DNA of 62,184 nt, taken from a virus. Taxonomy: Duplodnaviria > Caudoviricetes. Numbering within the stretch: position 1 is the first letter of the stretch; every line of letters starts with the position of its first letter. Of the stretch, positions 35,801 through 54,966 are shown in pieces. The position numbers and the translations under genes were made by a program. Location: positions 1-62,184 of the IMG/VR virus record IMGVR_UViG_3300033150_000672. One strand, given 5' to 3'. The notes under the pieces were generated by a model. That model was not told where the DNA came from, searched no databases, and saw only the letters and a program-made list of their open reading frames with translations.

Positions 35801-36485
35801 GTATGAGACAGAGAAATGGGATTTAACAAATTTAATAAGAATATTATATACTTATAAATTTGATACTGTTTACTTTATGGAGGATGGGTGGAACTCTACA
35901 TGGTCTCAAGAGATGAGACACGCTGGTTTCAAAGTTTTCTGTGTTTTGAAATTTAAGAATAAATCAATAGAAGTTTTAAGAAGTAAGATAGACGCTGTTA
36001 GAATGTTTTCTGATGGCATCTGTTTTGATTACATTAGAGAAGAGAATTGTAAACTATGGAATGTTTTTTCAATTTTTAAAATAATGTTTAGAGTCAATAA
36101 AATAAAATTTCTTATTGATTTAGAGAAAGAGAAAGAATGGCACTGTGTCTTAAAATGTGAAGATTATTCGTCTCTCCTTGATAATGAATTAAACCGAATG
36201 TTTTATGGCCAGTCCATTCCTCTATTTTCTCTTTTATTTGATAGAATACTTCTAATGAGTTACCATCAAGAATATAAACAACCAATTTATCATGTAGTAG
36301 AACTTATTTTAAAACTTCAAAATTTATCTAAAAAGGTTATTCCAATATTTCAAACCTATCAAGATAATCCAATACAAGACTATGATAAATATTGGGGAGA
36401 TGTTGTTATGGTGACAGATATATTTACAAATAAAGCATATTTTAGATTGGGAACGTGTGATTTAGATTCTTTTAAAACAGAGTGA
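35778..36485 (+). CDS. Putative TIM-barrel glycoside hydrolase-like protein
   Basis: DGICFDYIR and YGQ...FD.I.LMSY resemble GHL10/DUF4015-like motifs. Confidence 0.5.
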   Translation: MKAVFIGKYETEKWDLTNLIRILYTYKFDTVYFMEDGWNSTWSQEMRHAGFKVFCVLKFKNKSIEVLRSKIDAVRMFSDGICFDYIREENCKLWNVFSIFKIMFRVNKIKFLIDLEKEKEWHCVLKCEDYSSLLDNELNRMFYGQSIPLFSLLFDRILLMSYHQEYKQPIYHVVELILKLQNLSKKVIPIFQTYQDNPIQDYDKYWGDVVMVTDIFTNKAYFRLGTCDLDSFKTE

Positions 36486-36921
36486 TTTGACCATTCCGTC
36501 TTATTTTTCGAGGAGATTTTGGTGGAGGAACCAATGATTTGGTTTTGGTTATCACCCCGTCAACCGCATCAAAGGGAGTTAATTCAATGGATTTTTCCTC
36601 CTTTACCACCTCCTCGAATTGTATCACTCCTTCTTTTTCTAAAACAAGTATGAATTCACTTAATGACATATTGGTATTATAATGCTTACCTTCTGCATCA
36701 TTTACACTCTGAAGCCATATTTTTTTCCATGATTCAGGTGTGAGTTGTTTTTCACCGTATCTTGTTGAACCGAGTTTTGTCATTAGGGTGCTTATTATTA
36801 ATTCTGGATTTGGATCTTCTATTGGTCTTTCTATAAAAACCGTTTTTCCGTTTAATTTTGTTGGTATTCTTTCTTTTACGTAATCTCGAATATACATTAA
36901 CATCTTTACTATTTTTGACAT
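36472..36921 (-). CDS. Hypothetical protein
   Basis: GGAGGTGA RBS before ATG 36921; converges with the structural arm. Confidence 0.7.
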   Translation of the reverse strand: MSKIVKMLMYIRDYVKERIPTKLNGKTVFIERPIEDPNPELIISTLMTKLGSTRYGEKQLTPESWKKIWLQSVNDAEGKHYNTNMSLSEFILVLEKEGVIQFEEVVKEEKSIELTPFDAVDGVITKTKSLVPPPKSPRKIRRNGQITLF

Positions 36922-37120
36922 AATTTTCACCTCCAAATATTTTTATTGTTTTTTTATTTTTCATTAATAATTTAAGATTATAATCTCCAGATATTAAACA
37001 ACGTCTACATATTATAACATTATCTTTTTTTATTCTAAATTTTTTACTCAAAACTTTTTCACAACACCAACAAAAAAATTTCTTTTTTCTAACTGCTTTT
37101 GGTAAATTGTCTAGATTCAT
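36752..37120 (-). CDS. Zn-finger protein (CWCC...CRRC); start adjusted
   Basis: ORF track; long 3' overlap with the next gene. Confidence 0.5.
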   Translation of the reverse strand: MNLDNLPKAVRKKKFFCWCCEKVLSKKFRIKKDNVIICRRCLISGDYNLKLLMKNKKTIKIFGGENYVKNSKDVNVYSRLRKRKNTNKIKRKNGFYRKTNRRSKSRINNKHPNDKTRFNKIR

Positions 37121-37171
37121 ATTATTATTAATATTTATATTTTTCTTTTCCAATATAAATTCTTTGTAATT

Positions 37172-37235
37172 ACTGTCGGCACCTATGAAAGATTTAGAAT
37201 CATACTCATTTGAGGTGAGTAACGGTGCCGACAGT
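37172..37235. other. Three-way-junction hairpin with a perfect 12-bp closing stem
   Basis: ACTGTCGGCACC / GGTGCCGACAGT enclosing two short hairpins. Confidence 0.7.
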
Positions 37236-37244
37236 GAATATGAT

Positions 37245-37604
37245 TTATTTTTCATTAGCAATCAGTGTTTGAAATAATCTTAATAAATTTTTTTGTTTTT
37301 CCAATTCAAATTCTAATAATGCTTTTTCATATTTCATATTATCTAATTTTACTTTTGTTTCTTGATAATTTTCACTTTGTTTTAATCTATACAATAATTC
37401 TGCTTTTCTAGATTCTGCATTACCAAATTTTGGTTTTCCTCTCATATCAACTTCTGATGTGATTATTGACATGAAACCAAAAGATATTTCTTCTATCTTT
37501 CCTTGATACTCTTCAATTATTCTTGTTCTATCTAAAATTTTCAAGTTCAAGTTGAATATCTTTTCTATCATTTTCTTTCCTTTCATTTCGTATTCTTTGT
37601 TCAT
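37245..37604 (-). CDS. Coiled-coil protein (GKPKFGNAESRKAEL motif)
   Basis: GAGGTGA RBS. Confidence 0.7.
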   Translation of the reverse strand: MNKEYEMKGKKMIEKIFNLNLKILDRTRIIEEYQGKIEEISFGFMSIITSEVDMRGKPKFGNAESRKAELLYRLKQSENYQETKVKLDNMKYEKALLEFELEKQKNLLRLFQTLIANEK

Positions 37605-37773
37605 AATTTATCACCTCTTCAAATAATTTGCTTTGGTTTGGATCATCTTTTGTTTTGATTTTAATTTTTCTTTCTGGTTTACCAAAAAGTTTTACAAAAC
37701 AAACATATCCATATTTTCTTTCTACACTTTCTGGATTTTTAAGTATTCTTCCGCATCTCAAACAATTCGTCAT
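37528..37773 (-). CDS. DUF6011-like Zn-finger protein
   Basis: CLRCGRILKNPESVERKYGYVC. Confidence 0.75.
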   Translation of the reverse strand: MTNCLRCGRILKNPESVERKYGYVCFVKLFGKPERKIKIKTKDDPNQSKLFEEVINYEQRIRNERKENDRKDIQLELENFR

Positions 37774-41715: not shown

Positions 41716-42515
41716 TTCTTATCAGCCCCCTCACACTTCGTTCCTTTAAATCCGCACCACTTGCATGGCCAAACCCATCCTTGTTTGTTAGCAAGTGGAA
41801 AACAATCAATATTAATTAATTTTTGAACAATATCAATTTCTTTAATTATCTTTTTTAGATATCTTTCATCTACCTTTTCAAAAAATAAATGGTCATGTTG
41901 AGTGAAATACATGGCCCAATATTTAACCTTACCATATTTTTTTGACCTTGGATCTCCATTCCAACACAACGCATAAAAAGCCATCTCTTCTCTACATTTA
42001 TCTTTATTTTTTACCTTTCCTGTTTTCCAATCAACAATTATAACTCCATCATCCTCATAATGATAATAAACAGCATCTATTATTCCATGAATTTTTAATT
42101 GATGATTATAATAATCTACTTCTTGTGATATTGGAAAGAAATGTTTTTTATTATGTGATTTACTCAATATTGATTCTTTTAATTTTATAAAATTATTCAT
42201 ATTTTTCTTTCCTTTATAACGTTCTTTATTAATTGTTATTTGTGGTTTTTTTATAATTTCAATTTTTTGTTCTCCAGTTTTTTCATCTCTTATTATTTTT
42301 TTAATTTCTTTTTCTTCTATTTTCACTCCATTGGTGTAGAAGTGTTCAATTTCTTTATGAATTTTATTTCCCTTATCTGCTAAAAAAGAAAATTTTGTTC
42401 TTGGTTCTATATATTTATAGATGTATTTCAATTTAAATTTATATGGACACTCATTATAAGTCAAAAATTTTGACTTAGATAATAAGAATCTTTCTTCTTT
42501 TTTTAATTCATTCAA
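41703..42515 (-). CDS. Cas4-like PD-(D/E)xK exonuclease
   Basis: LS.S....Y..CP, G..IH, GIID, DWKTG, CKWC.....C. Confidence 0.9.
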   Translation of the reverse strand: MNELKKEERFLLSKSKFLTYNECPYKFKLKYIYKYIEPRTKFSFLADKGNKIHKEIEHFYTNGVKIEEKEIKKIIRDEKTGEQKIEIIKKPQITINKERYKGKKNMNNFIKLKESILSKSHNKKHFFPISQEVDYYNHQLKIHGIIDAVYYHYEDDGVIIVDWKTGKVKNKDKCREEMAFYALCWNGDPRSKKYGKVKYWAMYFTQHDHLFFEKVDERYLKKIIKEIDIVQKLINIDCFPLANKQGWVWPCKWCGFKGTKCEGADKKRVK

Positions 42516-44794
42516 AATAATTTCACCTGCCCCATTTCATTATTTTTTGAGTGTTTCCATCCCATTGCTCTAAATATTCTTTCTAATTTTGTATCAAATA
42601 TTCGTTCAAACATTTTATTCCAATTAATAATAATTCCTTTTGGAACCTGGTCATCTCTTTCAAATGCTATTGTTCCTCTTGGTGGTTGAGGTAATTCTGG
42701 AATATATTTAACAAACAACATTTTAATTCTATCTCCTGGTTGAAACTTACAACCCAGGTATTTATTTCCATATTTAAACGCCTCAGTATATATATCACTT
42801 CTGTTGGTCTTTTTAACACTCCTTCTAATTGCTATATTACGTAAAGGATATTTTCCTTCAATCATTTCCATTTTTAGATTTTCAACATATCTTTCAACAT
42901 CTTCTTTCGTTCCATTGTCTAGAATTATTTTAAAAATATTTTTTAATGCTTCTTGTTCAATTTTTGCCGTGTCTGCTCTTTTGGTTTCAAAACCCATAAT
43001 TTTTAATGATTTATTCCAATTTCCTTCCTTGTCTTTTTCAACAATATAACCCATATATCTTTTCTTTGCAGCACCACCAGTATCTTTCACACCAAAAAAT
43101 ATTTTACTAAAAATTTTTTCAAACTGCATTAATAAGGTATGATTATCAACACCAAACTTATTAACAAATTCATTATATGATTCTGTTAATTTTTCTGCCA
43201 ACTCAGTAGCAACTTTCATTGCTTTATCATAATCACCATCAACTTCTTCTGGAATTTTCACAAAAATTGAATCTGTATCTCCATAAATAACATCAAATCC
43301 AAGTTTCTCTGCTACTTCTTTGGAATATTTAATAATTTCTCTTCCTGCCCAAGTCACAGTTGCTGCTATTTCTTGTTTAAACATTCTGAAATATGGATTT
43401 CCAAGTGCTCCATATAGACTGTTGGCAGCAACCTTCACAGCATATTGTTGAGCATAATAAGAATCATATTCTATTGTTCCTTTTTGATATTTTTTCATTT
43501 CTTTTTTTAATCTTTCACGTTCTTCCAGAAGTTTTTCACATATTATAGGACATATTCCCTTTTTACTTTTATCTAAAATCAATCCATTAATTTTAATATC
43601 TCCACTTGGGTCTAACATTTCAGGTGATAGATTCCAGGTTCTAATAATATTTGGATATAGAGATTTTAAATCTAATACAAAAACTCCTTCATGTAAACCA
43701 ACTGGTGGATTGTCAACAAAACCTCCACCATATCTTTCTCTTTTATTTTTTACTTTTTTTGGAAGAACCAATCCTAATTTTTTTGCTTCTCTTAAAAACA
43801 ATATATCATGAAATCTTGTTGCGTTAAATAAATCATCCCATTGACATCCAATAATTCTTCTCTTGGTATTATAATAATTAATAATATTTCTTTTCTCATC
43901 TAACCAAACACATAACATCACGTCTTTATAACAATAATCTAATAATAATTTTCTATCTTTATCCCATAGATTTTCCCAATCTCCTTCTACCTCGATTTTT
44001 TTATCTTTCAGTTCTTTTTGTGCTACTGAATTTAAACGATAACTATCCATTTGGGAGAAAGTTAGGTCAGTTTTATATCCCTGGAGTAAGTCAAAACTAT
44101 ATCTTCCATTGATAGTTATCCTCCAAAATGGGTCGAATTCTTCTGCTTCTACCTTTCCGTGCATAGAAATAAGGTCGACATTAACTCCAAGAAGTCTACA
44201 ACGATTAATAATGTAAGGCCAGTCAAAGCCATTTGAATTCCATCCACAAAATAAATCAAAATCAAAATCACAAATAAACCTAATAAATTTATTAAGCATA
44301 CTTCTCTCATTATTGAAATAATATGTTTTTCTTTCAATTCCTTCTCCACTTTTAGTCACCTCTTTTCGTGGTTTTTCATCTGGATGCCAGATAAATCCAT
44401 ATTGAGTTTCAGAAAAATTATCATAGCAGCAGATACAAGTTATTGGAACAGGAGTATTTACTCTGTCCAAACTTCCTGCGTTTTCAATATCCAGATAACA
44501 AACACGGAATTCATCTTCACCAATATTTTCTACTCTATCAATTAAAATTCTATTAATAAATAATATATCTGATTCAAAGGTTTCATCATATTTCTCTCTT
44601 TCTTTTTTGACTTCATATGAACTATTCACTTCTATTTTTTTTAATCTATCTCCAAAAACACTTTGATATTTTCCATTTATATCCTTCACATAAAAATATG
44701 GTATATGTTTTATTTCTTCCATAGTTCTATTTTTTTCATTATCTCTTCCAACAAGAATAATGGTATCACCACTTTTTTGGAAAATATTTATCAT
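42512..44794 (-). CDS. polB: Family B DNA polymerase
   Basis: Exo DIE, N...FD, YC..D; pol DLKSLYP, K...NS.YG, YGDTDS. Confidence 0.97.
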   Translation of the reverse strand: MINIFQKSGDTIILVGRDNEKNRTMEEIKHIPYFYVKDINGKYQSVFGDRLKKIEVNSSYEVKKEREKYDETFESDILFINRILIDRVENIGEDEFRVCYLDIENAGSLDRVNTPVPITCICCYDNFSETQYGFIWHPDEKPRKEVTKSGEGIERKTYYFNNERSMLNKFIRFICDFDFDLFCGWNSNGFDWPYIINRCRLLGVNVDLISMHGKVEAEEFDPFWRITINGRYSFDLLQGYKTDLTFSQMDSYRLNSVAQKELKDKKIEVEGDWENLWDKDRKLLLDYCYKDVMLCVWLDEKRNIINYYNTKRRIIGCQWDDLFNATRFHDILFLREAKKLGLVLPKKVKNKRERYGGGFVDNPPVGLHEGVFVLDLKSLYPNIIRTWNLSPEMLDPSGDIKINGLILDKSKKGICPIICEKLLEERERLKKEMKKYQKGTIEYDSYYAQQYAVKVAANSLYGALGNPYFRMFKQEIAATVTWAGREIIKYSKEVAEKLGFDVIYGDTDSIFVKIPEEVDGDYDKAMKVATELAEKLTESYNEFVNKFGVDNHTLLMQFEKIFSKIFFGVKDTGGAAKKRYMGYIVEKDKEGNWNKSLKIMGFETKRADTAKIEQEALKNIFKIILDNGTKEDVERYVENLKMEMIEGKYPLRNIAIRRSVKKTNRSDIYTEAFKYGNKYLGCKFQPGDRIKMLFVKYIPELPQPPRGTIAFERDDQVPKGIIINWNKMFERIFDTKLERIFRAMGWKHSKNNEMGQVKLF

Positions 44795-45210
44795 TTAAAA
44801 ACACTCCTCCAATTTTTACCATATTTTTTTATTAATTTTATATGTAACCCAGAATGATATCCTGCTGAACAAACCAAAAGATTATTTGGATTATTATTTC
44901 TTACGTTCCCATCTATATGGTGAGTAACAATAGGATATTTGACATCAATACCAGTTATTTTTTTTACGATTCTTCTGGCTATCATTTGAAAATATCCATT
45001 TTTTCCTCCTTTCCACTTAGGATTATCACAACCATTATATCTACTTTTTTTTATTTTACTCATTTTCAGTTTGGTTTTTTCTGAATGTTTCTTTCCAAAC
45101 ATTGGATTCTTCTTACCCATTCTTGCTATACGTTTCTTTTGTTTTGTTTCTTCACTATCTTTAAATCCCTTTCTTAATTTACCATATATATTTCCTTTTT
45201 GAAATACCAT
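44791..45210 (-). mobile_element. Free-standing NUMOD3-HNH homing endonuclease
   Basis: NPMFGKKHSEKTKLKMS, NPKWKGG, HHIDG...NN...NL......H...H. Confidence 0.85.
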
Positions 45211-45216
45211 CTCTAA

Positions 45217-45660
45217 TCATTTATTCATCCTTTCTTGAAATTCTTTACTCATTTGATTTGCTTGATTTTGTAATTGTTGCTGTTTTTCTCTATATTCTTT
45301 TACCAATTCTTCAAATAATTTAAATCTTTTTTGTATTTCTTCATCATCTTTTGTAGCAGATTCTAGTCTATCTAACTCTTCCATTAAGGATTTCTTATTT
45401 GCCATATGATGTTCTATATTTTTAAATTGTTGATTTAAATTTTTCTTGAAGTTTTCTATTTCTTGACGCATATTTCTTTTTTTCTGTTTGATTTGATTGA
45501 TATTATTGTTGATACCTGTCAACATCTGTCTTTTTTGTTGTAATCTAGCAAACATATCTTTCTGTGTCAAAGTTTCTGTAATTGTGGTTTTAATTATATA
45601 AACCTTATCTGTTTTATCAAAACGAACATCTTGATTTTGTTCAATTTTCATTAACTCCAC
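45217..45660 (-). CDS. Coiled-coil protein
   Basis: Q/K/E heptads; GGAGGTG RBS. Confidence 0.7.
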   Translation of the reverse strand: MELMKIEQNQDVRFDKTDKVYIIKTTITETLTQKDMFARLQQKRQMLTGINNNINQIKQKKRNMRQEIENFKKNLNQQFKNIEHHMANKKSLMEELDRLESATKDDEEIQKRFKLFEELVKEYREKQQQLQNQANQMSKEFQERMNK

Positions 45661-46817
45661 CTCCCAAATAATGAAATTTGTTTTTGTTTTATTTGTTTCT
45701 TATCACTTACACCAAATTTTCTCATTGCTTTTTCTAATCCTTCTTCTAAAGAATAATCAATGAAGTCAAAAGTTTTTTTCACTTCATTAATTCTTGATTG
45801 AGATTGCATAATCATAAAAGCAAACTGTTCTAACCTACTTCTGTTTTTTGCTAATATGTTATATCTTCTATTTAATTCTAAATACTGATATAGGTTATGA
45901 AGTGATAATAATGTTCCTGCTCTTGTATCTGTCCCCAACAAGTCTTTAATATCAATATGCTTACAAACTGGACAATCACATGGTAATTCATCTGTAAATT
46001 CAGGATTATATTTAGCATGAACATCACCAAATAGTAATTTTTCTCCCATAAACATTGGCATTTGATAGACTCTCATTTTATCACCAATTGAGTAGGAACT
46101 ACTATCATAAGTGATTTTAGATTTTGTTTTATGAGCAAGATAAGACAATACCGCCATCACAGCCATACCAGATGTTCCAAAATAATGCAATCCTTTTTTC
46201 TTTAATTCTCCATTAAAATATAAATATAATCCTCCTAATGCCTGGTGAAATGGATTGGCAGACAATGCACTCCCCATACCAAATCCTTCAAAATTGAAAT
46301 CTTTTATAGAATTATACCACCTATCTAATTGTTCATAATTGTAACCATGAATCACATAATACATTTTCATTCTAAAATTTTGTCTATGTTTTTCAAACAC
46401 TCTATAATTTTCTAATGATTTTTTATGACATTTTTCAAAAAATCCAGGGTTGTAATTATTAATGGTTTCAACTGTTCCAGGTGGAACATCTATACCAAAA
46501 CCAATATCACAATTATTTTCTAACCAACGTAATATTTCAATTGGTTCAATATTTATTTTCTTTCCTTTTGCTGTGAATGTTGCTATTTGAAATCCACCAC
46601 TATCTCCTAATAATATATGATGTTTAGGAAATTTCATTTTTTCTCTCCAATTGTGTCCCCAATTAATTCCATAAAATCCGCATTGAAGAGCATAATCATG
46701 TTTGAAAAAAGCATTTTCTGAAAACCAAGTCATATCAAATCCTTTATATTTAACATCTTTTTCCCAACAATAATTCATTTTTTCAGATATTGCTGGTATA
46801 TAGTGCGCGGTTCCCAT
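45651..46817 (-). CDS. dpdA: TGT-family transglycosylase, probable DNA-targeting DpdA-like
   Basis: GDSGGFQ, D.P, V.HG, H.FG, DSSS, Zn site CDCPVC...HNL; within the que cluster. Confidence 0.8.
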   Translation of the reverse strand: MGTAHYIPAISEKMNYCWEKDVKYKGFDMTWFSENAFFKHDYALQCGFYGINWGHNWREKMKFPKHHILLGDSGGFQIATFTAKGKKINIEPIEILRWLENNCDIGFGIDVPPGTVETINNYNPGFFEKCHKKSLENYRVFEKHRQNFRMKMYYVIHGYNYEQLDRWYNSIKDFNFEGFGMGSALSANPFHQALGGLYLYFNGELKKKGLHYFGTSGMAVMAVLSYLAHKTKSKITYDSSSYSIGDKMRVYQMPMFMGEKLLFGDVHAKYNPEFTDELPCDCPVCKHIDIKDLLGTDTRAGTLLSLHNLYQYLELNRRYNILAKNRSRLEQFAFMIMQSQSRINEVKKTFDFIDYSLEEGLEKAMRKFGVSDKKQIKQKQISLFGRWS

Positions 46818-46822
46818 CCTAT

Positions 46823-47536
46823 TTACCTCCAGAGATTATACTTTTTTAAGACTTCTTTGGTTTGTGAAGTCCTTTTCATATCATACTTTCCAGCCTTCAT
46901 ATTTTTGACATATTCTGGAATTTTTTTGTATTTTGTTATATCATTATCATATTCCTCATGAATATTATTATATTCAAATGCTATCCACCTTCTAAAACAA
47001 CTTGAACATTGACCACATTGTTTCCCTTCTGATGAATAACAAGAAACTGTTCTTTTTAAATTTTCTGGGTCAAGTCCTTGGTCTAGATACCATTTTACCA
47101 TATCTGCTTTCGTCATATACCAAAATGGTGAATCAAATTTTATTGGTCTCTTCTTATCCTCCCATAAATAATTAACTAATTGTTGAGCATTTAAAAAGAA
47201 TTGTTTTGTTCTATCTGGAATGCTCATCTCTCCTTGTTGAACTATTAAGTAAACTTCATTACCATAATATGTTCCTATCATTAACAAAAACATATTTCTC
47301 ATTTGAATATTAGCATTTGGTTCCTCCCATGGTCTAATATCTAATGTCTTATCTATTATCAATTCCATACTACAGAGTTTTGCTAACTTTTCAACAGTTG
47401 TTCTTTCTTTATGAGAATATCTACTATTCAAATCAACATAGACCGCTCTTGGTTTTCCCAAATAATGCCAACCAATAAACGAATCCAATCCGCCTGAAAA
47501 CAAAATTACTTTTTTGTTTTCGTATTCTTTATGCAT
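46823..47536 (-). CDS. Divergent QueC-family adenylating enzyme (second copy)
   Basis: SGGLDS, MRN, PD.T, SCY...CGQCSSC. Confidence 0.85.
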   Translation of the reverse strand: MHKEYENKKVILFSGGLDSFIGWHYLGKPRAVYVDLNSRYSHKERTTVEKLAKLCSMELIIDKTLDIRPWEEPNANIQMRNMFLLMIGTYYGNEVYLIVQQGEMSIPDRTKQFFLNAQQLVNYLWEDKKRPIKFDSPFWYMTKADMVKWYLDQGLDPENLKRTVSCYSSEGKQCGQCSSCFRRWIAFEYNNIHEEYDNDITKYKKIPEYVKNMKAGKYDMKRTSQTKEVLKKYNLWR

Positions 47537-47850
47537 TTTTCAGCCACCTCTTTTAATTGTTCAATTGTCAAATTTTTGTCATCAATATAATAATCTGCTA
47601 ATGGTTTTCTCATTATTAATTCATGGTATTTAACGCCATGTCTAACGAGCCATATTATCGTTACTTCTCTATCACACCAAAACCTTGAGGTATGAAGAAT
47701 TATTTCATGGCCTTTTTTATATAGAGCATTAATGATATCAATTATTTCTTTATTTGGTGTCTTTTTATCAAATACTTCTACGCCAAATCCTTCTGCTTCA
47801 TTTGTTAGAACCCCATCAATATCAAAACAAAAAGTTTTCTTTTGCTCCAT
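47506..47850 (-). CDS. HAD-superfamily minimal phosphatase (BcbF/EcbF-like)
   Basis: FDIDGVL, HTSR, KP.ADYYIDDK. Confidence 0.85.
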   Translation of the reverse strand: MEQKKTFCFDIDGVLTNEAEGFGVEVFDKKTPNKEIIDIINALYKKGHEIILHTSRFWCDREVTIIWLVRHGVKYHELIMRKPLADYYIDDKNLTIEQLKEVAEKCIKNTKTKK

Positions 47851-48644
47851 TAATCTACCAACTCCAAATATTTATACATCCACATATCTTTTGTGCATTT
47901 CTTTTTCAAATCTTTCAAATAAACGTTTTTAAAATAATCTGGATTTACATATTTCTGTCCATCTGGATATTTCCCTGGATATTTCTTTTCTAGCACATAG
48001 AAAGCAAATCTTCTATTACAACAACATCCGCACATCCCACACGCATCTATCTTTCCGTCATCACAAGACCAGGTATGGTTATAAACCCAACCATAACCAT
48101 TATCATATCCCCACTTTAATATTTCAACTTTATCTTTATCATAAAGTGGAGCAAAACATTTTAATGGTTTTAAACAACCATATTCTAACATTGCTGTAAA
48201 TCTATCAGCAAATTCCATGGTATTATCTGGATAAGCAGTTTCACTTGCGTTTGCTCCCCAAGTAATATATTTGGCTCCTTTGGCCTCACCTACTGCTGCT
48301 GCACAGGCCAACAAAACCACATTTCTTCCTGGAACCCATAAACCTTCTTCTGATTTTTTGATATTTGTACTCTCTTCTAAACTATCCATACCTTTCGGAA
48401 TTGGAATATCTTTCTGAGTTAAACTACTACCACCTAATTTTCCTAACCATCCACAATCAATAAAGATTGCTGGAACTCCAAGTTTTTTTGCTATAACTTC
48501 TACTGCTCTATGTTCCGGAATTTCTGCCTTCTGTTTTAAATCTATATGAAGATATATAATATCAAATCCATCCTTCAACATTTTTAGACCCATTGAAATA
48601 GAATCTAATCCTCCTGATGTTACACAAATTGCTTTTTCTTTCAT
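47850..48644 (-). CDS. queC: 7-cyano-7-deazaguanine synthase
   Basis: SGGLDS, GGSSLT, VPGRN, YPD, TWSC...CG.C..C..R. Confidence 0.9.
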   Translation of the reverse strand: MKEKAICVTSGGLDSISMGLKMLKDGFDIIYLHIDLKQKAEIPEHRAVEVIAKKLGVPAIFIDCGWLGKLGGSSLTQKDIPIPKGMDSLEESTNIKKSEEGLWVPGRNVVLLACAAAVGEAKGAKYITWGANASETAYPDNTMEFADRFTAMLEYGCLKPLKCFAPLYDKDKVEILKWGYDNGYGWVYNHTWSCDDGKIDACGMCGCCCNRRFAFYVLEKKYPGKYPDGQKYVNPDYFKNVYLKDLKKKCTKDMWMYKYLELVD

Positions 48645-49654
48645 TTCAACCTCTCCTCCCAATATTTACTTCTATAATCTACTCCTTCAATTCCTAATTT
48701 ATCAATTATATATGGATATGCCCAATAGCAACCATCACATTCTTTCCATTCTTTAACAATTTCTTCTAAAGTAGAATCATTTAAATCAAAAATAGATATT
48801 TTTTTATCCAATTTTTTATAACCACATAACCTTATTGACCCATCACAATCAATTCCCATCGCCAAACTATTTAATGAACAATGAAAATTTAAATTTAAAA
48901 TATTGTCAATATTGTCAAAATATTCCAATGGTGTTTGAATGTACTTTCTATATTTATCTGGAAGACTAATTAATTTATCTTTCAACGTTTGAAGTAACTC
49001 TTGGTCACCATCTACAAAGAAAAAAGGCGACCCCTTGGTTGTGGCAAAATCCATCTTGTCTCCTTCACTCCATTCAACAAAATTTAAACCTATATGAACC
49101 TTATCCACATTATCTACAATATATTTAATAATATCAGGCACCATTTCAATATTCATACGTGATATTGTTATTAAAGCATGTGTTTCTTCTACATAATCTT
49201 GCATCTCTTGCATTCCTTTTATCGCTTCTCTTCCTTTTTTAACCAACTGTTCTCGTTGTTGTTCAACTAAATATCTGGTATCTGGTTTCCACCTTTTACT
49301 CATATAGACTTCATCAATAAAATCTATTCCACTTGACCAATTTCTTATACCTACTTTTTTTAATTTTTCTTTCAACCTTGAAAAATAGGGTTCTGGAGAT
49401 GTTGAATAAAAACCATATTCATAACCACGTTCATTCCAAAATTTAACCAATTCTACCAAATCATCTCCCATCATTAATGGTTCAGAGGCTAATATTAAAT
49501 AAAAATTTGTTCCTTTGTTCTCTAAAATTGTGAAAACTTCTTTCCATTTTTCAACTGATAATGATTTTTTTCCTGTGATTACATCACAATATGGACATTT
49601 TCTAGGACAGGTTCGATTTAAATAGATACTAACCGCTTTAGGTATATATTTCAT
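48641..49654 (-). CDS. Radical SAM enzyme with a Twitch/SPASM-like C-terminus
   Basis: CPRKCPYC, EP; C-terminal C...DG.I.LC...CDGC. Confidence 0.85.
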   Translation of the reverse strand: MKYIPKAVSIYLNRTCPRKCPYCDVITGKKSLSVEKWKEVFTILENKGTNFYLILASEPLMMGDDLVELVKFWNERGYEYGFYSTSPEPYFSRLKEKLKKVGIRNWSSGIDFIDEVYMSKRWKPDTRYLVEQQREQLVKKGREAIKGMQEMQDYVEETHALITISRMNIEMVPDIIKYIVDNVDKVHIGLNFVEWSEGDKMDFATTKGSPFFFVDGDQELLQTLKDKLISLPDKYRKYIQTPLEYFDNIDNILNLNFHCSLNSLAMGIDCDGSIRLCGYKKLDKKISIFDLNDSTLEEIVKEWKECDGCYWAYPYIIDKLGIEGVDYRSKYWEERLK

Positions 49655-50316
49655 AAACCACATCCTCCATCAATTATGAAATTATGGCCCGTAAAATAAT
49701 CACCTTCTTCTATAATATATTTAACCAGTTTTCCAATTTCAATTGGTTTTCCTTCTCTTTCAATTGGTATTGTGTTAAATAATTCATCTGGTAATGTTCC
49801 TGGAACCAGATTTGTTCTAAAAAAACCGGGACTTATGGAATTAATTCTATGCCTAGGATATAGTTTGGCGAATGATTTTGTTAATGAAATCACTCCTGCT
49901 TTAGTCATTCCATAAGCAACCGTATCTGGATCTGCTCTGATTCCAGAAACAGAGGCAACATTGACCACATAACATTTTTCTTTCTGTTGACAAACTTTCC
50001 AAGTTCCAAAATAAACTGAATCTAAATTTACTCTCATTAATCTTTTATACTCTTGATATTCATCAATACCATAATTTTTTAATTCTAAATATCCTGCATT
50101 GTTTATTAATGCATCAATTTTCTTATATTCTTTTATTATATCATCCAATAATCCGACATAATTTTTTGGATTATCTAAATTCAATATATATGATTCATTA
50201 CATATTTCATCTTTTCCTCTTGATATTCCAATTGTAAACCAACCACTTTCTTTTAATTCTTTAGCAATTGCTTTACCTAATCCAGATGTTGTTCCAGTTA
50301 TAACTGCTATTTTCAT
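49651..50316 (-). CDS. Short-chain dehydrogenase/reductase
   Basis: TGTTSGLG, NNAG, S, YGMTK, N.ISPG, TG....IDGG. Confidence 0.92.
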   Translation of the reverse strand: MKIAVITGTTSGLGKAIAKELKESGWFTIGISRGKDEICNESYILNLDNPKNYVGLLDDIIKEYKKIDALINNAGYLELKNYGIDEYQEYKRLMRVNLDSVYFGTWKVCQQKEKCYVVNVASVSGIRADPDTVAYGMTKAGVISLTKSFAKLYPRHRINSISPGFFRTNLVPGTLPDELFNTIPIEREGKPIEIGKLVKYIIEEGDYFTGHNFIIDGGCGL

Positions 50317-50327
50317 TTCTAATCCTC

Positions 50328-50690
50328 CTATAATTTTAAACTCATTAATACTTCCAATTTTACATCCCAATCTTTTTCCATCTCTCCTGAGACTAAATTA
50401 ACTTGAACTTCTTCTTGATAATCTTCCATCAATAAATACGCTCCTTTATTTTTATATTTTTTATTGAACCACTCTAATAGTTCTTGAGCAATTTTTTCTA
50501 ACCAAATTTCTTTTTCTTTTTTATTTTTTAATAATTCTGTAATTTTTGATTTCACATCATTTACATCAGCAAAATTTCCTTCTTTTGGTAGATATGCTAA
50601 TGAAACCATATATTTTTCACACTTTTCTTCAGATTGTGTTCCGTCTTCTGCAAACAACATTTCCTTAAATAAAACCAATGGTGTCAACAT
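50328..50690 (-). CDS. Degenerate T-fold protein (FolE/QueF-like)
   Basis: YLP...EKIAQ......K....G.....E aligns by eye with the adjacent FolE core; canonical QueF CP..G.PD absent. Confidence 0.5.
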   Translation of the reverse strand: MLTPLVLFKEMLFAEDGTQSEEKCEKYMVSLAYLPKEGNFADVNDVKSKITELLKNKKEKEIWLEKIAQELLEWFNKKYKNKGAYLLMEDYQEEVQVNLVSGEMEKDWDVKLEVLMSLKL

Positions 50691-50691
50691 T

Positions 50692-51264
50692 TTACAAACC
50701 TCCTATTAATTTAAAAAATTCATTCCTAACTGCTAATTCTTCAAAGCATCCTTTGAATGCACTGGTTCTCATAACCGAATCTATCTTTTTAATTCCTCTC
50801 ATCTGTTCACAAAAATGTTCTCCTTCTATCACAACCATAACACCCTGAGGATTTAATTTTTCATTCAAAAAATCTGCTATTTGTTGTGTTAATTTTTCTT
50901 GAACTTGAGGACGATGAGCAAACCATTCAGCAATTCTAATAAGTTTTGATATCCCACAAATTTTTCCATTTGGTATATAACCAATATGAACTTTCATTTT
51001 AATGGGAACAAAATGATGCTCGCATGTGCTGAATATTGTGGCTGAATTTGTTATTATTTGGTCATAATTATTATGATTTTCAAATAATCTAATTCTAGGT
51101 TCTGGTTTATATAATCCTTCAAATAATTCATTATAAAACATTCTAGCAACCCTTTTTGGAGTATCTTTCAAACTATCATTTGCTAAATCTAAACCAAGTT
51201 CTTTTAAAAATTCTGCAAACTTATTACTTAATGCTGTTATTTTTTTATACTCTTGACTTACCAC
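50692..51264 (-). CDS. folE: GTP cyclohydrolase I
   Basis: TPKRVA, CEHH, GISK..R, QVQE, H.C..MRG. Confidence 0.95.
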   Translation of the reverse strand: MVSQEYKKITALSNKFAEFLKELGLDLANDSLKDTPKRVARMFYNELFEGLYKPEPRIRLFENHNNYDQIITNSATIFSTCEHHFVPIKMKVHIGYIPNGKICGISKLIRIAEWFAHRPQVQEKLTQQIADFLNEKLNPQGVMVVIEGEHFCEQMRGIKKIDSVMRTSAFKGCFEELAVRNEFFKLIGGL

Positions 51265-51679
51265 CTTTATCCCTCCTATCTCTATCTCTCATCATTATTG
51301 ACAAATCTTTATCCCAAGGAAAAACCACCCAAACATCTTTTGGATATTTTCTAGCAAAAAATTTTGGAATTACTTTTGTTCCTTCTTTATAACATATACA
51401 AACCGTATCAAACCTTCTTAAATAATATAACGTTTCTCCTGAATCACTGATATCATCTACTACCAATGTTTTTTTATCTGGATAAAAATCATCTGTGTTG
51501 GTATAGATATCCATTATATCTAATTGGTAAGCCAGGTGTGTTGCTGGAATTAATCCTCCTCTCTTGATTGTATAAATTTTATCATATTCTTTTCCACTTT
51601 CTTTTATCTGTTTAATTATTGACCTCATATTAATAGAATATTGAGACCAATTCATAAATTCACGTCGTTTTTTTGTCAT
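51245..51679 (-). CDS. Type I phosphoribosyltransferase (Gpt-like)
   Basis: RGGLIPA, LVVDDISDSGETL, WVVFPW. Confidence 0.9.
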   Translation of the reverse strand: MTKKRREFMNWSQYSINMRSIIKQIKESGKEYDKIYTIKRGGLIPATHLAYQLDIMDIYTNTDDFYPDKKTLVVDDISDSGETLYYLRRFDTVCICYKEGTKVIPKFFARKYPKDVWVVFPWDKDLSIMMRDRDRRDKGGKSRV

Positions 51680-51680
51680 T

Positions 51681-52322
51681 TTATTTACCTCTTTTATTAT
51701 ACCATACCAATTGATGCAACCGTGGAGAAAATTTCTTTCTATGTTTTACACAATATTCCCAAACCTTTTTTGAAATGGTTTTATCTCTTTTGGCAGCATA
51801 GGTGGTTAATGGCATTAACATTGTTGCTATATCTAACATATCAGTTCCAACATCTCTTAAGTTTGTAACAACTTTGATATCGTAAAAACCAGAACCTCTC
51901 ATTATTTCTTTAATTGCCTTTGCCGTGGTTAGGTCTTTAGGACTGAATGCTACATAATAAAAATTTTTAAAAAAATAATCATAGTCTAATATTGTTCCAT
52001 TGGTTTCTAAATGATGGTCTTTTCTGGTTATTCCTTTTTCTATCATTATTTTTATAACTTCTTCTATAGCACTTCTTTGTAACATTGGTTCACCACCAGT
52101 CCAAATGACTATTTTTTGTTCTGAATCTATTAATTTTAATGCTAATTCTTCTGGAGATAATATCCAATTTGTTTTATTGTGATATTTTGTATCACAATAT
52201 TCACAATTCAAATTACATCCACTTAATCTAACAAATATGGCTGGATATCCAACATATCTTCCTTCTCCTTGTATGCTTTCAAAAACTTCTGATATTCTTA
52301 ATTTAGTCAATTTTATCACCAT
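51681..52322 (-). CDS. queE: 7-carboxy-7-deazaguanine synthase
   Basis: E.F.SIQGEG, GCNLNCEYCDT, TGGEP, ETNGT, SPK, RLH. Confidence 0.93.
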   Translation of the reverse strand: MVIKLTKLRISEVFESIQGEGRYVGYPAIFVRLSGCNLNCEYCDTKYHNKTNWILSPEELALKLIDSEQKIVIWTGGEPMLQRSAIEEVIKIMIEKGITRKDHHLETNGTILDYDYFFKNFYYVAFSPKDLTTAKAIKEIMRGSGFYDIKVVTNLRDVGTDMLDIATMLMPLTTYAAKRDKTISKKVWEYCVKHRKKFSPRLHQLVWYNKRGK

Positions 52323-52716
52323 AAATTACACTACAACCTGGACTTTCCCATAGTTCAACACTTATTTTTTGAATGTTATCTCCTAAGGTTTCATTTAATA
52401 ATTTAAATATTTCTATTGCTAAATTTTCTGCTGTTGGTTCTCTTTTTTCCAAAATTCTAATACTCATTTTCATTCTATCCAACATTTCAACCAATTCGAT
52501 ATTTTCTGGAGAATCACTTAAAATTATTGTGTGGTCAAATAAATCAATTATTTCTTTGATTTTTTTAAAATCAATCATCATACCAGTATTTGCTAAAGGT
52601 CTTCCTTTCAATATTATTTTTATATTCCATCTATGTCCATGAACATTTTTGCATGCACCGTTGTAATGTGCTAATCTATGTGCTGCATCAAAATGATATT
52701 CAACAGTTTCAATCAA
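52303..52716 (-). CDS. queD: 6-carboxytetrahydropterin synthase
   Basis: FDAAH.L, C...HGH, DF, FDH, PTAEN.A, WES. Confidence 0.93.
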   Translation of the reverse strand: MIETVEYHFDAAHRLAHYNGACKNVHGHRWNIKIILKGRPLANTGMMIDFKKIKEIIDLFDHTIILSDSPENIELVEMLDRMKMSIRILEKREPTAENLAIEIFKLLNETLGDNIQKISVELWESPGCSVIYGDKID

Positions 52717-53198
52717 AACAAACTCACCTGCCCTCTATTTTTTAAAGAATCTTTTTCAACCGTTATCTTTTCAATTCCTAAACGTTCTCGTTCTTTATCA
52801 GTCAATCCGAATTTTCTCGCCACTTTTATTTTAAATTCTTGACTACTTAAATAATTACATAACAAAGACCAATATATTTTGATTTCCCTATCACTCCACC
52901 TATATCTGATTTTAAAATAATCTTTGAGCCATTCAAAATCATCTTCTCTTTTTATTTTTTTAGGATAAGGAATATATTTGTTATCTTTTTTTACACGAAG
53001 AAACATTTCCATAAGTAATATTTTGTTTGGAACTCCATTCAAAATGCCTTCTTCTATATCTAAAAACAAACTCATATTTCTTTTGTCACTACCAAACCAA
53101 GCGTTGAGTTGCCATAAATTTTTTTCATCTATCTTATTAAAAGATTCAATATCTTTTTTTAGCATATTTTTAAAATCTAAAAGGAGAGGGAAAGTCAT
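52713..53198 (-). CDS. Putative clamp-loader accessory subunit (T4 gp62-like)
   Basis: Directly after RFC; YPKK...Y..S..E pattern; C-terminal QVSLF. Confidence 0.55.
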   Translation of the reverse strand: MTFPLLLDFKNMLKKDIESFNKIDEKNLWQLNAWFGSDKRNMSLFLDIEEGILNGVPNKILLMEMFLRVKKDNKYIPYPKKIKREDDFEWLKDYFKIRYRWSDREIKIYWSLLCNYLSSQEFKIKVARKFGLTDKERERLGIEKITVEKDSLKNRGQVSLF

Positions 53199-54088
53199 TT
53201 CAAAACCTCCATTAATTGTAATAAAAAAGGGCGAATAATTAATTTTTTATTATTAACCCTGTTCATTTCTACATAAGCGGTTCTAATCAAACTCATTGCT
53301 GTTTTCTTTTTTGTTGTTTCATATTCTCCATAAAACAATTTATTTGCCAGGAAATCCATCAATATTTCTTCATCAATATAGTCTCCTTCATATATTTCTA
53401 TCGCTCTTTTGAAATTACCAACCTCTAATGATTCTAAAATTAAAGCAACTCTATTTGCTATTATATTTGTGGTATCTTCTGTTACCTTTCCAGACCTATG
53501 ATAAATAACTTCTAATTCTTTAATCGCTCTTCTGATATCTGGATATGTTGTTTTCACAATATTATAGATTCCTTTTTCATTATATTCCACTCCTTCTAAT
53601 TCACATATTCTATAGAGTAAATTTCCTATATCATCCTTTTTTGGTTTTTTAAATTCTTTACAAACACATCTACTTTTAATTGGGTCAATTATTTTATTTA
53701 CCCAGTTGCAAGTTAATATGAATCTACAATTTTTTTGGTAGGTATCCATAATTCCACGAAGTGATGCAAAGGCTGGTGGTGTTAATTGGTCTGCCTCATC
53801 TAATAATATTATCTTAATATTACCATCTAATGATTTTGTCATAGCAAATTGTTTAACTCTTTCTCTAATCGCATCTATTCCTCTCTCATCACTTGCGTTC
53901 ATTTGTAGATAATGAGCCTTGCGTTGAGAAATTATAACCTTTGCTGTTGTGGTTTTACCCGTTCCTGCGGGTCCATAAAACAGGAAGTTGGGCATTTTTC
54001 CCAACGCAAGACTTGGAATTGAGGGGTCTAGACCAATTATTTCTTCAAATTTCTGTGGTCTATATTTTTCTACCCATAACATTTTCAA
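53195..54088 (-). CDS. rfcS: Replication factor C small subunit / clamp loader ATPase
   Basis: WVEKYRP, GPAGTGKT, NASDERGID, DEAD, SRC. Confidence 0.95.
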   Translation of the reverse strand: MKMLWVEKYRPQKFEEIIGLDPSIPSLALGKMPNFLFYGPAGTGKTTTAKVIISQRKAHYLQMNASDERGIDAIRERVKQFAMTKSLDGNIKIILLDEADQLTPPAFASLRGIMDTYQKNCRFILTCNWVNKIIDPIKSRCVCKEFKKPKKDDIGNLLYRICELEGVEYNEKGIYNIVKTTYPDIRRAIKELEVIYHRSGKVTEDTTNIIANRVALILESLEVGNFKRAIEIYEGDYIDEEILMDFLANKLFYGEYETTKKKTAMSLIRTAYVEMNRVNNKKLIIRPFLLQLMEVLK

Positions 54089-54966
54089 ACCCCCAAATCA
54101 GGTAGTTCATTTTTTGGAGGTTCAAGTTTTTTCTCGTCTTCTCTACCTTTCTTTTTTAATTCTTCTTCATGTGTCTTTTTCTGGTCTGAAGTTGGATTTT
54201 TTTCTACTTCTTCTTTAGATTCTTTTTGTCTTTCTAAATCAATTTTTGGTGCTATTATAATGGAAATCATTATATTTTCTCCAATTTCTTTCACTTGAAG
54301 TGGTTTGTCATAATCAACTATACTTATGTTTAAATCCTCTCCAAGAGAACCAAAAACTTGATTATACCTATCTCCAGCAATTTTTATATCACAATCTTTA
54401 TAATCAATTTCTATATTTTCCATTATTTTACTATGTTCTGAAATTGTTTTAAACCACAATATTCCTTTTTCAACTGTGATTTCTACATCAGGAACATAAT
54501 TTTTAGAACTTAATGTTGAAATGTTTTGTGTAACCTTTCTCAATATTTCTGTTTTTCCTGTTCTAAAACCTGGGTCAAAATCAATTTTCAATTCTTTTTC
54601 GCATTTATTTTGAACAAATTCTTCATCTGATAGATTTATTGTTGCAATTCTTTTTTCATTTTGAATTGAAAGGACAGAACCACTTTTTTCAACTTTCATT
54701 AATATTTCTCCTGAAAATCCTTTAAGAAGTTTTATTAACAGGTCTACGTCACTGTTAGTTGATGTAGAACCAAGTGGTATATTTAATCCTTCTTTGTATT
54801 CTGTAAATGCTTCTCTCAATAATATTCCTTTAGATAATATGACATTATCTAAACTCATATTTGCAACCATTCCTTTGTTCGTTGTTTTTAAAACCGCGCT
54901 TGGTATTGCTCCTTTTAGTGTCACTTTTTCAAGAAATTCCACTAACTTTTTTGAATTTATTTTCAT
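54085..54966 (-). CDS. Sliding clamp (PCNA/gp45-like) with charged C-terminal tail
   Basis: About 240-aa two-domain body ending IIAP; adjacent to the clamp loader. Confidence 0.7.
   Translation of the reverse strand: MKINSKKLVEFLEKVTLKGAIPSAVLKTTNKGMVANMSLDNVILSKGILLREAFTEYKEGLNIPLGSTSTNSDVDLLIKLLKGFSGEILMKVEKSGSVLSIQNEKRIATINLSDEEFVQNKCEKELKIDFDPGFRTGKTEILRKVTQNISTLSSKNYVPDVEITVEKGILWFKTISEHSKIMENIEIDYKDCDIKIAGDRYNQVFGSLGEDLNISIVDYDKPLQVKEIGENIMISIIIAPKIDLERQKESKEEVEKNPTSDQKKTHEEELKKKGREDEKKLEPPKNELPDLGV

Follow-up and report, generated by a model that had tools for sequence, protein, structure and literature searches.

The window analysed here is the complete IMG/VR record IMGVR_UViG_3300033150_000672, a stretch of 62,184 bp with a G+C content of approximately 30% and a completeness rating of 45%. 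The record is part of the genome of an uncultured tailed virus that encodes its own replisome and a full 7-deazaguanine pathway. A structural module with a T4-type large terminase (TerL) and portal lies on the plus strand, and a replication and modification module occupies the minus strand from 36.4 kb to 62 kb, comprising a family B DNA polymerase (PolB), a gp44/RFC-like clamp loader, an HNH/NUMOD3 endonuclease and a complete preQ0 pathway. TerL and PolB match haloarchaeal tailed viruses as well as T4-like phages, at 22-29% identity. The subject of this analysis is a DpdA-like guanine transglycosylase of this module (hereafter DpdA), which carries near its C-terminus a short peptide also found at the end of PolB. 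The genes and open reading frames (ORFs) on which the analysis turns are the following.

42512-44794, minus strand: PolB, family B DNA polymerase, 760 amino acids (aa) (PF00136, E 6.9e-51; PF03104, E 3.3e-19; phrog_262, E 8e-141)
45651-46817, minus strand: DpdA-like guanine transglycosylase of the TGT superfamily, 388 aa (Pfam TGT, E 6.8e-7; NCBIfam TgtA, E 6.9e-10, below the cutoff of that family)
54085-54966, minus strand: predicted sliding clamp with a two-domain PCNA/gp45-type fold, 293 aa
53195-54088, minus strand: clamp loader ATPase, T4 gp44/RFC-like, 297 aa (phrog_168, "clamp loader of DNA polymerase", E 2.3e-67)
52713-53198, minus strand: 161-aa protein in the position of gp62 (gene order clamp, loader, this ORF)
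36472-36936, minus strand: 154-aa ORF with no family match in Pfam or PHROG, the last gene of the replication module, facing the late structural module

PolB ends in GQVKLF (QVKLF, 42515-42529, minus strand), and the 161-aa protein behind the clamp loader ends in GQVSLF (QVSLF, 52716-52730, minus strand). DpdA ends in KQISLFGRWS, so that its QISLF (45666-45680, minus strand) lies four residues before the end. These three strings, which an earlier note on this DNA had proposed as a link between the transglycosylase and the replisome, are present exactly where it had placed them. The 154-aa ORF adds a further case, NGQITLF (QITLF, 36475-36489, minus strand), preceded by a stretch rich in Pro, Lys and Arg. 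The pattern Q..[LIVM]F stands at the very end of 3 of the 106 window proteins, against a mean of 0.03 in shuffled sequences, and none of 20,000 shuffles reached 3. Within five residues of the end it is found in 4 of the 106, with a shuffle mean of 0.19 and 2 of 20,000 shuffles reaching 4. The common tail motif in the window is real and not a product of chance. The earlier note had also counted NQSKLF of a DUF6011 protein (81 aa, 37528-37773, minus strand). That string exists (37621-37638), but it is internal, 31 residues from the end, and the pentapeptide occurs 12 times in the 19,911 aa of the window proteins, so it carries no weight and the protein was rejected as a further clamp client. Like T4 gp33 or gp55, the 154-aa protein may act as a small client of the clamp. 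It is overlapped in another frame by a 169-aa ORF (36752-37261), which leaves its true start uncertain.

The assignment of DpdA to the TGT superfamily is supported by several comparisons. The DpdA profile matches arcTGT (1iq8) with E 4.1e-5, and the AlphaFold2 (AF2) model (pLDDT 88.2) has the TGT fold, with 1iq8_A as best Foldseek match (E 3e-12). Two alignments, of 23 and 36 sequences, show no variation at D72, D238, C280, C282, C285 and H307, and the DpdA segments DSGGFQ, YDSSSY, PCxCPVC and LHNL align with DSGSFQ, FDSASY, PCSCPVC and LHNL of arcTGT. The invariant Asp residues of these motifs are presumably the catalytic Asp residues of TGT. The alignment spans residues 91-327 of the 582-aa arcTGT, that is, the catalytic domain only; the C-terminal tRNA-binding part is therefore absent from DpdA. 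Among named phage proteins the best matches have 22-27% identity and none exceeds 27%, and neither DpdA1 of phage CAjan nor DpdA of phage phi3ST:2 is among them, so that by close similarity the protein belongs to no cultured subfamily (DpdA1-4, bDpdA). Residues 371-388 of the AF2 model, directly beyond the last confident helix (361-368), have pLDDT below 50. The expected picture is that of a short linear motif on a flexible, disordered linker.

The tail is conserved in relatives. The search found 170 DpdA homologs, and the counts given here refer to the best 120 of these 170, the window's own protein included, and to the closest 25. As background we used 1,369 ORFs of at least 100 aa, with duplicate tails dropped, from the loci that were fetched because they carry a DpdA homolog (7 viral, 75 metagenomic) or a loader homolog (80 of 400, all viral). 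The pattern Q..[LIVM][FWY] within four residues of the end occurs in 34 of the best 120 homologs and in 23 of the closest 25, compared with 6 of the background ORFs; the conservation among close homologs that the earlier note had made a touchstone of its proposal is thus present. A looser tail, Q..[LIVM]..[FWY], similar to the PCNA-interacting peptide (PIP), is found in 28 of the best 120 and 19 of the closest 25 (background 4), and a hydrophobic-aromatic pair within three residues of the end in 68 and 22, respectively (background 131; Fisher p 8e-33 for homologs against background). Of 49 distinct PolB tails, 35 have such a pair as well. The consensus end of the close homologs is KTKQxxIFxF, with Q380 conserved in at least 90% of 23 aligned sequences, and the dozen residues ahead of Q380 are variable. 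Four metagenome loci (L042, L043, L046 and L047) have DpdA homologs of 822-831 aa whose alignment to the window protein does not begin until about residue 63-68, which suggests an N-terminal fusion or insertion; they retain the tail KQxxI[FY]x[FY]. In four T4-like loci (L090, L097, L100 and L132) a family of 203-214-aa proteins, for example L132 14380-15024, ends in KQ[EI]xQNxLY plus three or four residues. This family contributes 4 of the 6 background ORFs with a Q..[LIVM][FWY] tail, and its members may be further clamp clients.

The DpdA tail was also compared with the PolB tail of the same virus. PolB ORFs shorter than 580 aa were dropped from this comparison, except those of L050 and L036. 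Across divergent viruses the DpdA and PolB tails on one contig change together, through the forms IFxF, KFFxF, EFF and QxSLxxW/F, as the following loci illustrate (C-terminal residues).

L026: DpdA KQVNIFNF, PolB KNIFEF
L036: DpdA KQRSIFSY, PolB KNIFDY
L066: DpdA MQKSLGEW, PolB GQCSLEQF
L073: DpdA SEMNEFF, PolB SDIDEFF
L089: DpdA NKFFKF, PolB NKFFSFG
L155: DpdA IETFFDFN, PolB IESFFEF
L015 (closest relative): DpdA KQTNVWGF, PolB KQQKLW

Thirty-two loci with both tails, the window included, were grouped into 8 clusters at 50% DpdA identity, and one representative of each was used. The mean tail score was 20.1 for pairs from the same virus and 11.75 for cross-pairs, and the observed sum was reached in 4 of 20,000 permutations. 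In L073, L089 and L155 none of about 20 other ORFs per locus matched the DpdA tail as well as PolB did; in L002 it was 1 of 21 and in the window 2 of 79, and L066 had none to compare. This co-variation is what a shared docking site predicts. The genes also tend to lie close together: PolB, clamp or loader is found within four ORFs of dpdA in 28 of 46 loci, and the clamp gene directly adjoins dpdA in 11.

The candidate for that docking site is encoded in the same module. The clamp protein had no Pfam or PHROG family, and a word-based homolog search returned only the window's own protein. Iterated hidden Markov model searches over the ORFs adjoining loaders in related loci yielded 45 candidate clamps, so that the clamp-loader adjacency of the window recurs. 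A profile built from 29 of them matched PCNA of A. fulgidus (1rwz, E 2.2e-9), the RB69 clamp (1b77, E 2.4e-4) and T4 gp45 (1czd, E 0.013). The AF2 monomer (pLDDT 91.9, pTM 0.82) gave Foldseek matches to PCNA with E 1e-13 and TM scores, normalised by target, of 0.77-0.79. By profile and model the viral clamp is of the two-domain PCNA/gp45 type and not a three-domain beta clamp. Clamps of that type have two beta-alpha-beta-beta-beta domains of like topology in each subunit of about 230-260 aa. Residues 244-293 or thereabouts (54085-54234, minus strand) form a 50-residue helical extension rich in Lys and Glu at its C-terminus, absent from most homologs (234-249 aa). The loader matches Pfam AAA (E 8.5e-18), DNA_pol3_delta2 (E 2.9e-10) and, just under the cutoff, Gp44_lid (E 1.4e-5). 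In locus L035 (3648-5632) the loader gene consists of two ORFs of 434 and 225 aa, each aligning to a part of the window loader; the gene is perhaps split, or an inserted element may interrupt it.

The 161-aa protein matched nothing in Pfam, PHROG or the PDB, and the word-based search again returned only the protein itself. Its candidacy as gp62 (Phage_clamp_A, PF16790) was rejected on the family searches, since none of 10 members had a Pfam match and there was no PDB match. Gene position and a weak lead in the ESM Atlas (Phage_clamp_A, score 0.89, family in 12% of members, TM 0.39) hint weakly at that identity. Positional homologs in 9 loci align with it, with a C-terminal Leu in at least 90% and an aromatic residue behind that Leu, in the pattern L-x(0-2)-aromatic; the tails of the group are GQVSLF, KGVFDY, KTLFDF, GLDKWGM and GLEAFGM. 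This putative loader-associated protein also bears a tail of the general kind seen on DpdA and PolB.

Taken together, these comparisons make it likely that DpdA and PolB share a docking peptide. They point to the viral PCNA-type clamp as its most probable partner, and DpdA is then probably a clamp client like T4 gp43, gp33 and gp55. The tail peptide of DpdA would dock in a hydrophobic pocket of the viral clamp, as in the "sliding toolbelt" of T4, and the clamp would hold the enzyme on clamp-loaded, newly copied viral DNA. There DpdA would swap guanine for a deazaguanine base during replication or just behind it, and tethering would presumably raise the rate or the selectivity of modification. 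In T4 the C-termini of gp43, gp55 and gp33 are described as interchangeable clamp epitopes on divergent or variable linkers, and the RB69 clamp was crystallised together with the 11 C-terminal residues of its polymerase (PMC2988020). As in T4 and RB69, unrelated proteins of the window virus, the polymerase included, end in near-identical hydrophobic peptides on variable linkers, and the genes of the clamp and the gp44-like loader stand side by side. The PolB tails of relatives, K[NS]IFDF and NKFFSFG, resemble T4-type tails, such as TLESFFG at the end of gp43 of the T4-like vibriophage ValKK3. There are also differences from T4: the client in the window is a DNA base-exchange enzyme, a kind not listed in the available part of PMC2988020, archaeal PCNA outscores gp45 in the comparison with the window clamp profile, and the window tail has the form Q-x-x-L-F and is not acidic-hydrophobic. 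By analogy, a clamp-client peptide on a DNA base-exchange enzyme would be a new kind of client for a known toolbelt design.

The earlier note had linked the tail to the clamp through a beta-like pentapeptide. The link itself is partly supported, in so far as the tail is conserved, is predicted to be disordered and co-varies with that of PolB, and clamp and loader are both encoded; the beta-like reading is not supported. The bacterial beta-clamp motif has the consensus QL[SD]LF. QISLF, QVSLF and QITLF are similar to it in form, and the first two agree with Q-x-S-L-F. Their second residue, however, is I or V rather than L, QVKLF and QITLF fit less well, and the viral clamp is a two-domain protein of PCNA type. 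With a receptor of PCNA/gp45 fold, the family end KQxxIFxF reads as a truncated PIP box or as an aromatic tail of the T4/RB69 type. The canonical PIP box has the consensus Qxx[LIM]xx[FY][FY], with which neither QISLFGRW of the window nor QxxIFxF of its closest homologs agrees. Like the PIP clients of PCNA, DpdA has a conserved Q, a hydrophobic residue at +3 and aromatic residues, all at the C-terminus after a disordered linker, and a clamp with a PCNA fold is encoded. Unlike them, the window motif is shortened (QISLF, then GRW), and the aromatics of the family QxxIFxF stand at +4 and +6, not at +6 and +7. DNMT1 bound to PCNA is a clamp-tethered DNA-modifying enzyme, and the coupling of DNA modification to replication through the clamp is thus already known as an idea; unlike that known PCNA-tethered modifier, DpdA exchanges bases and is not a methyltransferase. 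PCNA complexes with C-terminal peptides of FEN-1 and RFCL were among the fold matches of the clamp (PDB 1rxm, 1isq), and a loader subunit with such a tail is accordingly known from PCNA systems, the archaeal RFC large subunit (1isq).

Instead of the clamp, the tail could dock to some other replisome protein (clamp loader, helicase, primase or single-strand-binding protein, for instance), in which case DpdA would still be tethered to replication. The co-variation of DpdA and PolB tails allows for this, as it reveals a shared constraint without saying which protein imposes it. The polymerase C-terminal peptide, however, binds the clamp in T4/RB69 (PMC2988020) and in archaea, the PIP-like form Q-x-x-[LIVM]-x-x-aromatic is enriched in DpdA homologs over the background as given above, and the 11 loci in which dpdA directly adjoins a clamp gene also point to the clamp. 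We regard a different partner as rather unlikely.

A second alternative locates the likeness in the DNA. One 10-mer, GGGCAGGTGA (42523-42532 and 52724-52733, minus strand), encodes GQV in both PolB and the 161-aa protein, and exact copies of it occur at those two gene ends only. In both it sits 8 nt ahead of a TTG start that overlaps the stop codon in TTTTGA, and so has the appearance of a repeated translational-coupling cassette; most genes of the module have such a ribosome-binding site 7-11 nt upstream. Part of the likeness between these two tails is therefore possibly of DNA-level origin. At the end of dpdA, the last four codons, GRWS (GGG AGG TGG AGT; GGGAGGTGGAGT, 45654-45665, minus strand), form the Shine-Dalgarno site of the next gene, which probably starts at ATG 45650 and not at GTG 45660 as in the ORF list. 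QISLF does not stand at the extreme end of DpdA because the GRWS codons serve that gene. On such an account the window likeness would be largely a by-product of a cassette that happens to read GQVxLF, with QISLF of DpdA a chance look-alike. Of the L and F codons, however, the cassette constrains no more than the final base of the second. The 154-aa ORF uses other codons for its tail (GGT CAA ATC ACT CTG TTT) and has no downstream gene, and the QISLF codons of DpdA precede the ribosome-binding site and are not within it. The predicted translation signals do not account for the L-F pair, the 154-aa ORF, QISLF of DpdA or the tails in other viruses, which are conserved and co-vary in different DNA contexts. 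This explanation has little probability in our estimate.

Equally improbable, in our judgement, is that an aromatic C-terminus is intrinsic to the transglycosylase family, serving dimer contacts, stability or as a degradation signal, and that its likeness to the polymerase is convergent. The many forms of hydrophobic-aromatic end among the 68 homologs counted above would suit such a role. So would phage CAjan, in which DpdA1 ends in VMELF and PolB in EDMGYA and no clamp gene is annotated in the stretches consulted; this unlike pair also speaks against a universal rule. An intrinsic role does not predict tails that vary in form with the PolB of the virus that carries them, and the tail is modelled as detached, with low confidence, and not packed on the fold. 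Finally, the view that the enzyme is a tRNA-guanine transglycosylase acting on host or viral tRNA, with a tail that has no DNA link, agrees with family matches that are only to tRNA enzymes (Pfam TGT, TgtA, arcTGT 1iq8) but is highly unlikely given a 388-aa protein reduced to the catalytic domain, a position in the replication module near PolB with a complete preQ0 pathway, and the description of DpdA-family proteins as a signature of deazaguanine in viral DNA (PMC10516641).

The reading of DpdA as a clamp client has to be set against several observations that weigh against it. In the window DpdA the motif is followed by four residues dictated by the ribosome-binding site of the next gene, and the shared 10-mer behind GQV has been described above. 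Two of the 8 clusters show little or no similarity between the tails: in L007, 12 of the 21 other ORFs score at least as high as PolB against the DpdA tail, which gives no support, and in L008 the 3 of 15 give weak support. Some clamp-encoding viruses (L004, L005 and L040) have DpdA homologs without a clear motif. Loci with IFxF tails on both DpdA and PolB have a post-loader protein ending in GL[DE]x[WF]G[MIL], so two tail types are possible within one virus. In ValKK3 the DpdA-like protein ends in AEFPAFKEQE, unlike the gp43 tail of that phage; Pfam TGT had no match there, and the DpdA profile found one ORF. There is also a disputed precedent, the one earlier claim of its kind: T4 alpha-glucosyltransferase was proposed to bind gp45 and so to act behind the fork as a clamp-bound phage DNA-modifying enzyme (Sommer et al. 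2004), but tests in vitro and in vivo with C-terminally tagged enzymes did not reproduce the binding (2025 preprint). Unlike the case of the window DpdA, that claim apparently involved no common C-terminal motif.

That the transglycosylase acts on DNA, as the earlier note had proposed, fits the catalytic-domain-only architecture, the full preQ0 pathway alongside and the place in the replication module. The sparing of host DNA that the earlier note had expected is, like the coupling to replication itself, a matter of inference. The phage DpdA proteins described so far (bDpdA, DpdA1-4; PMC6884629, PMC10516641) likewise combine a TGT catalytic domain with neighbouring FolE, QueD, QueE and QueC. 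Insertion of deazaguanine is viewed in these papers as post-replicative; their main text, as distinct from the supplements, does not contain the word "clamp" and does not describe a polymerase-like C-terminal tail on DpdA. In the literature searched we found no published link between DpdA or deazaguanine modification and a sliding clamp, PCNA or the replisome. DpdA subfamilies are reported to differ in the share of guanines that is modified, from <0.1% to 100%, and expression alone in E. coli leaves some phage DpdAs without activity (PMC10516641). A polymerase-type clamp tail would offer a concrete mechanism for how a phage DpdA finds its own DNA, namely that the enzyme travels with the replisome. 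It would also provide a clear, sequence-supported case of a phage DNA-hypermodifying clamp client, while the alpha-glucosyltransferase-gp45 interaction is disputed. In practical terms, such a tail could mark DNA-acting transglycosylases in metagenomes and predict co-expression partners for rebuilding efficient deazaguanine modification, and co-varying tails could be a route to the clamp-binding code of a virus from its sequence.

A wider proposal, which we put forward tentatively and consider possible rather than probable, is that viral modification of DNA with 7-deazaguanines relies on clamp tethering as a general principle of its design, with a large uncultured DpdA clade that copies the docking peptide of its own polymerase. 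On this view, bases would be exchanged as the DNA is copied, and only on viral DNA loaded with clamps. Partner proteins would provide the tether in phages that have a beta clamp, and whether a tether exists would help to account for both the range of modification and the DpdAs that are inactive alone. The comparisons with cultured phages were made post hoc and serve as leads only. Cellulophaga phage phi3ST:2 (L169, KC821610.1), whose annotation draws on its likeness to the mdPreQ1 phage phiSM of PMC10516641, has a beta clamp gene of its own; the product matches each of the three beta domains. The genes flanking dpdA (L169 6952-7605, 8325-8789 and 10859-11941 for the region) end in NQVNLF and TSVNLF; one encodes a CxxCxxCC protein that fits the description of DpdM in PMC10516641 (QVNLF) and the other a ParB_N protein (SVNLF), and the beta clamp gene comes three genes further on. 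Such tails occur in 2 of the 78 coding sequences read, out of 80 annotated, and 92 of 20,000 shuffles reach 2. Two other phi3ST:2 proteins end in DDVPF and DDLPF, like the tips of SSB. DpdA3 of a Campylobacter phage was not found with the DpdA profile. The TGT-domain proteins of Vibrio phage GR7B (L166, MT366760.1, 1114-2730) and Pseudomonas phage Peetri (L167, PP496444.1, 1357-2727) are distant; they have NKTLFG and ASSLFA, respectively, just past the catalytic domain, followed by long Lys-rich tails, and a PolB of the window type was not found in either record.

The remaining genes of interest lie around dpdA and polB. Against named phage polymerases PolB reaches 26-28% identity at nearest (haloarchaeal virus HVTV-1, gp43 of T4-like vibriophages, and cyanophages), and a scan with the single PolB protein returned 2 distant loci only. 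The endonuclease between dpdA and polB and the cluster for preQ0 synthesis and tailoring (46823-52716, minus strand), assigned by NCBIfam and Pfam matches, are as follows.

44791-45210, minus strand: homing-type endonuclease with NUMOD3 and HNH domains
46823-47536, minus strand: QueC-like protein, a second copy, also matching QatC
47506-47850, minus strand: HAD phosphatase
47850-48662, minus strand: QueC
48641-49663, minus strand: radical SAM protein
49651-50370, minus strand: SDR
50328-50690, minus strand: protein of unknown family
50692-51264, minus strand: FolE
51245-51679, minus strand: phosphoribosyltransferase, xanthine-type
51681-52322, minus strand: QueE
52303-52716, minus strand: QueD

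The pathway may end in a deazaguanine derivative that has yet to be described, or the route may run partly via a nucleotide. The phosphoribosyltransferase of the cluster is also present in the closest relative, L015.

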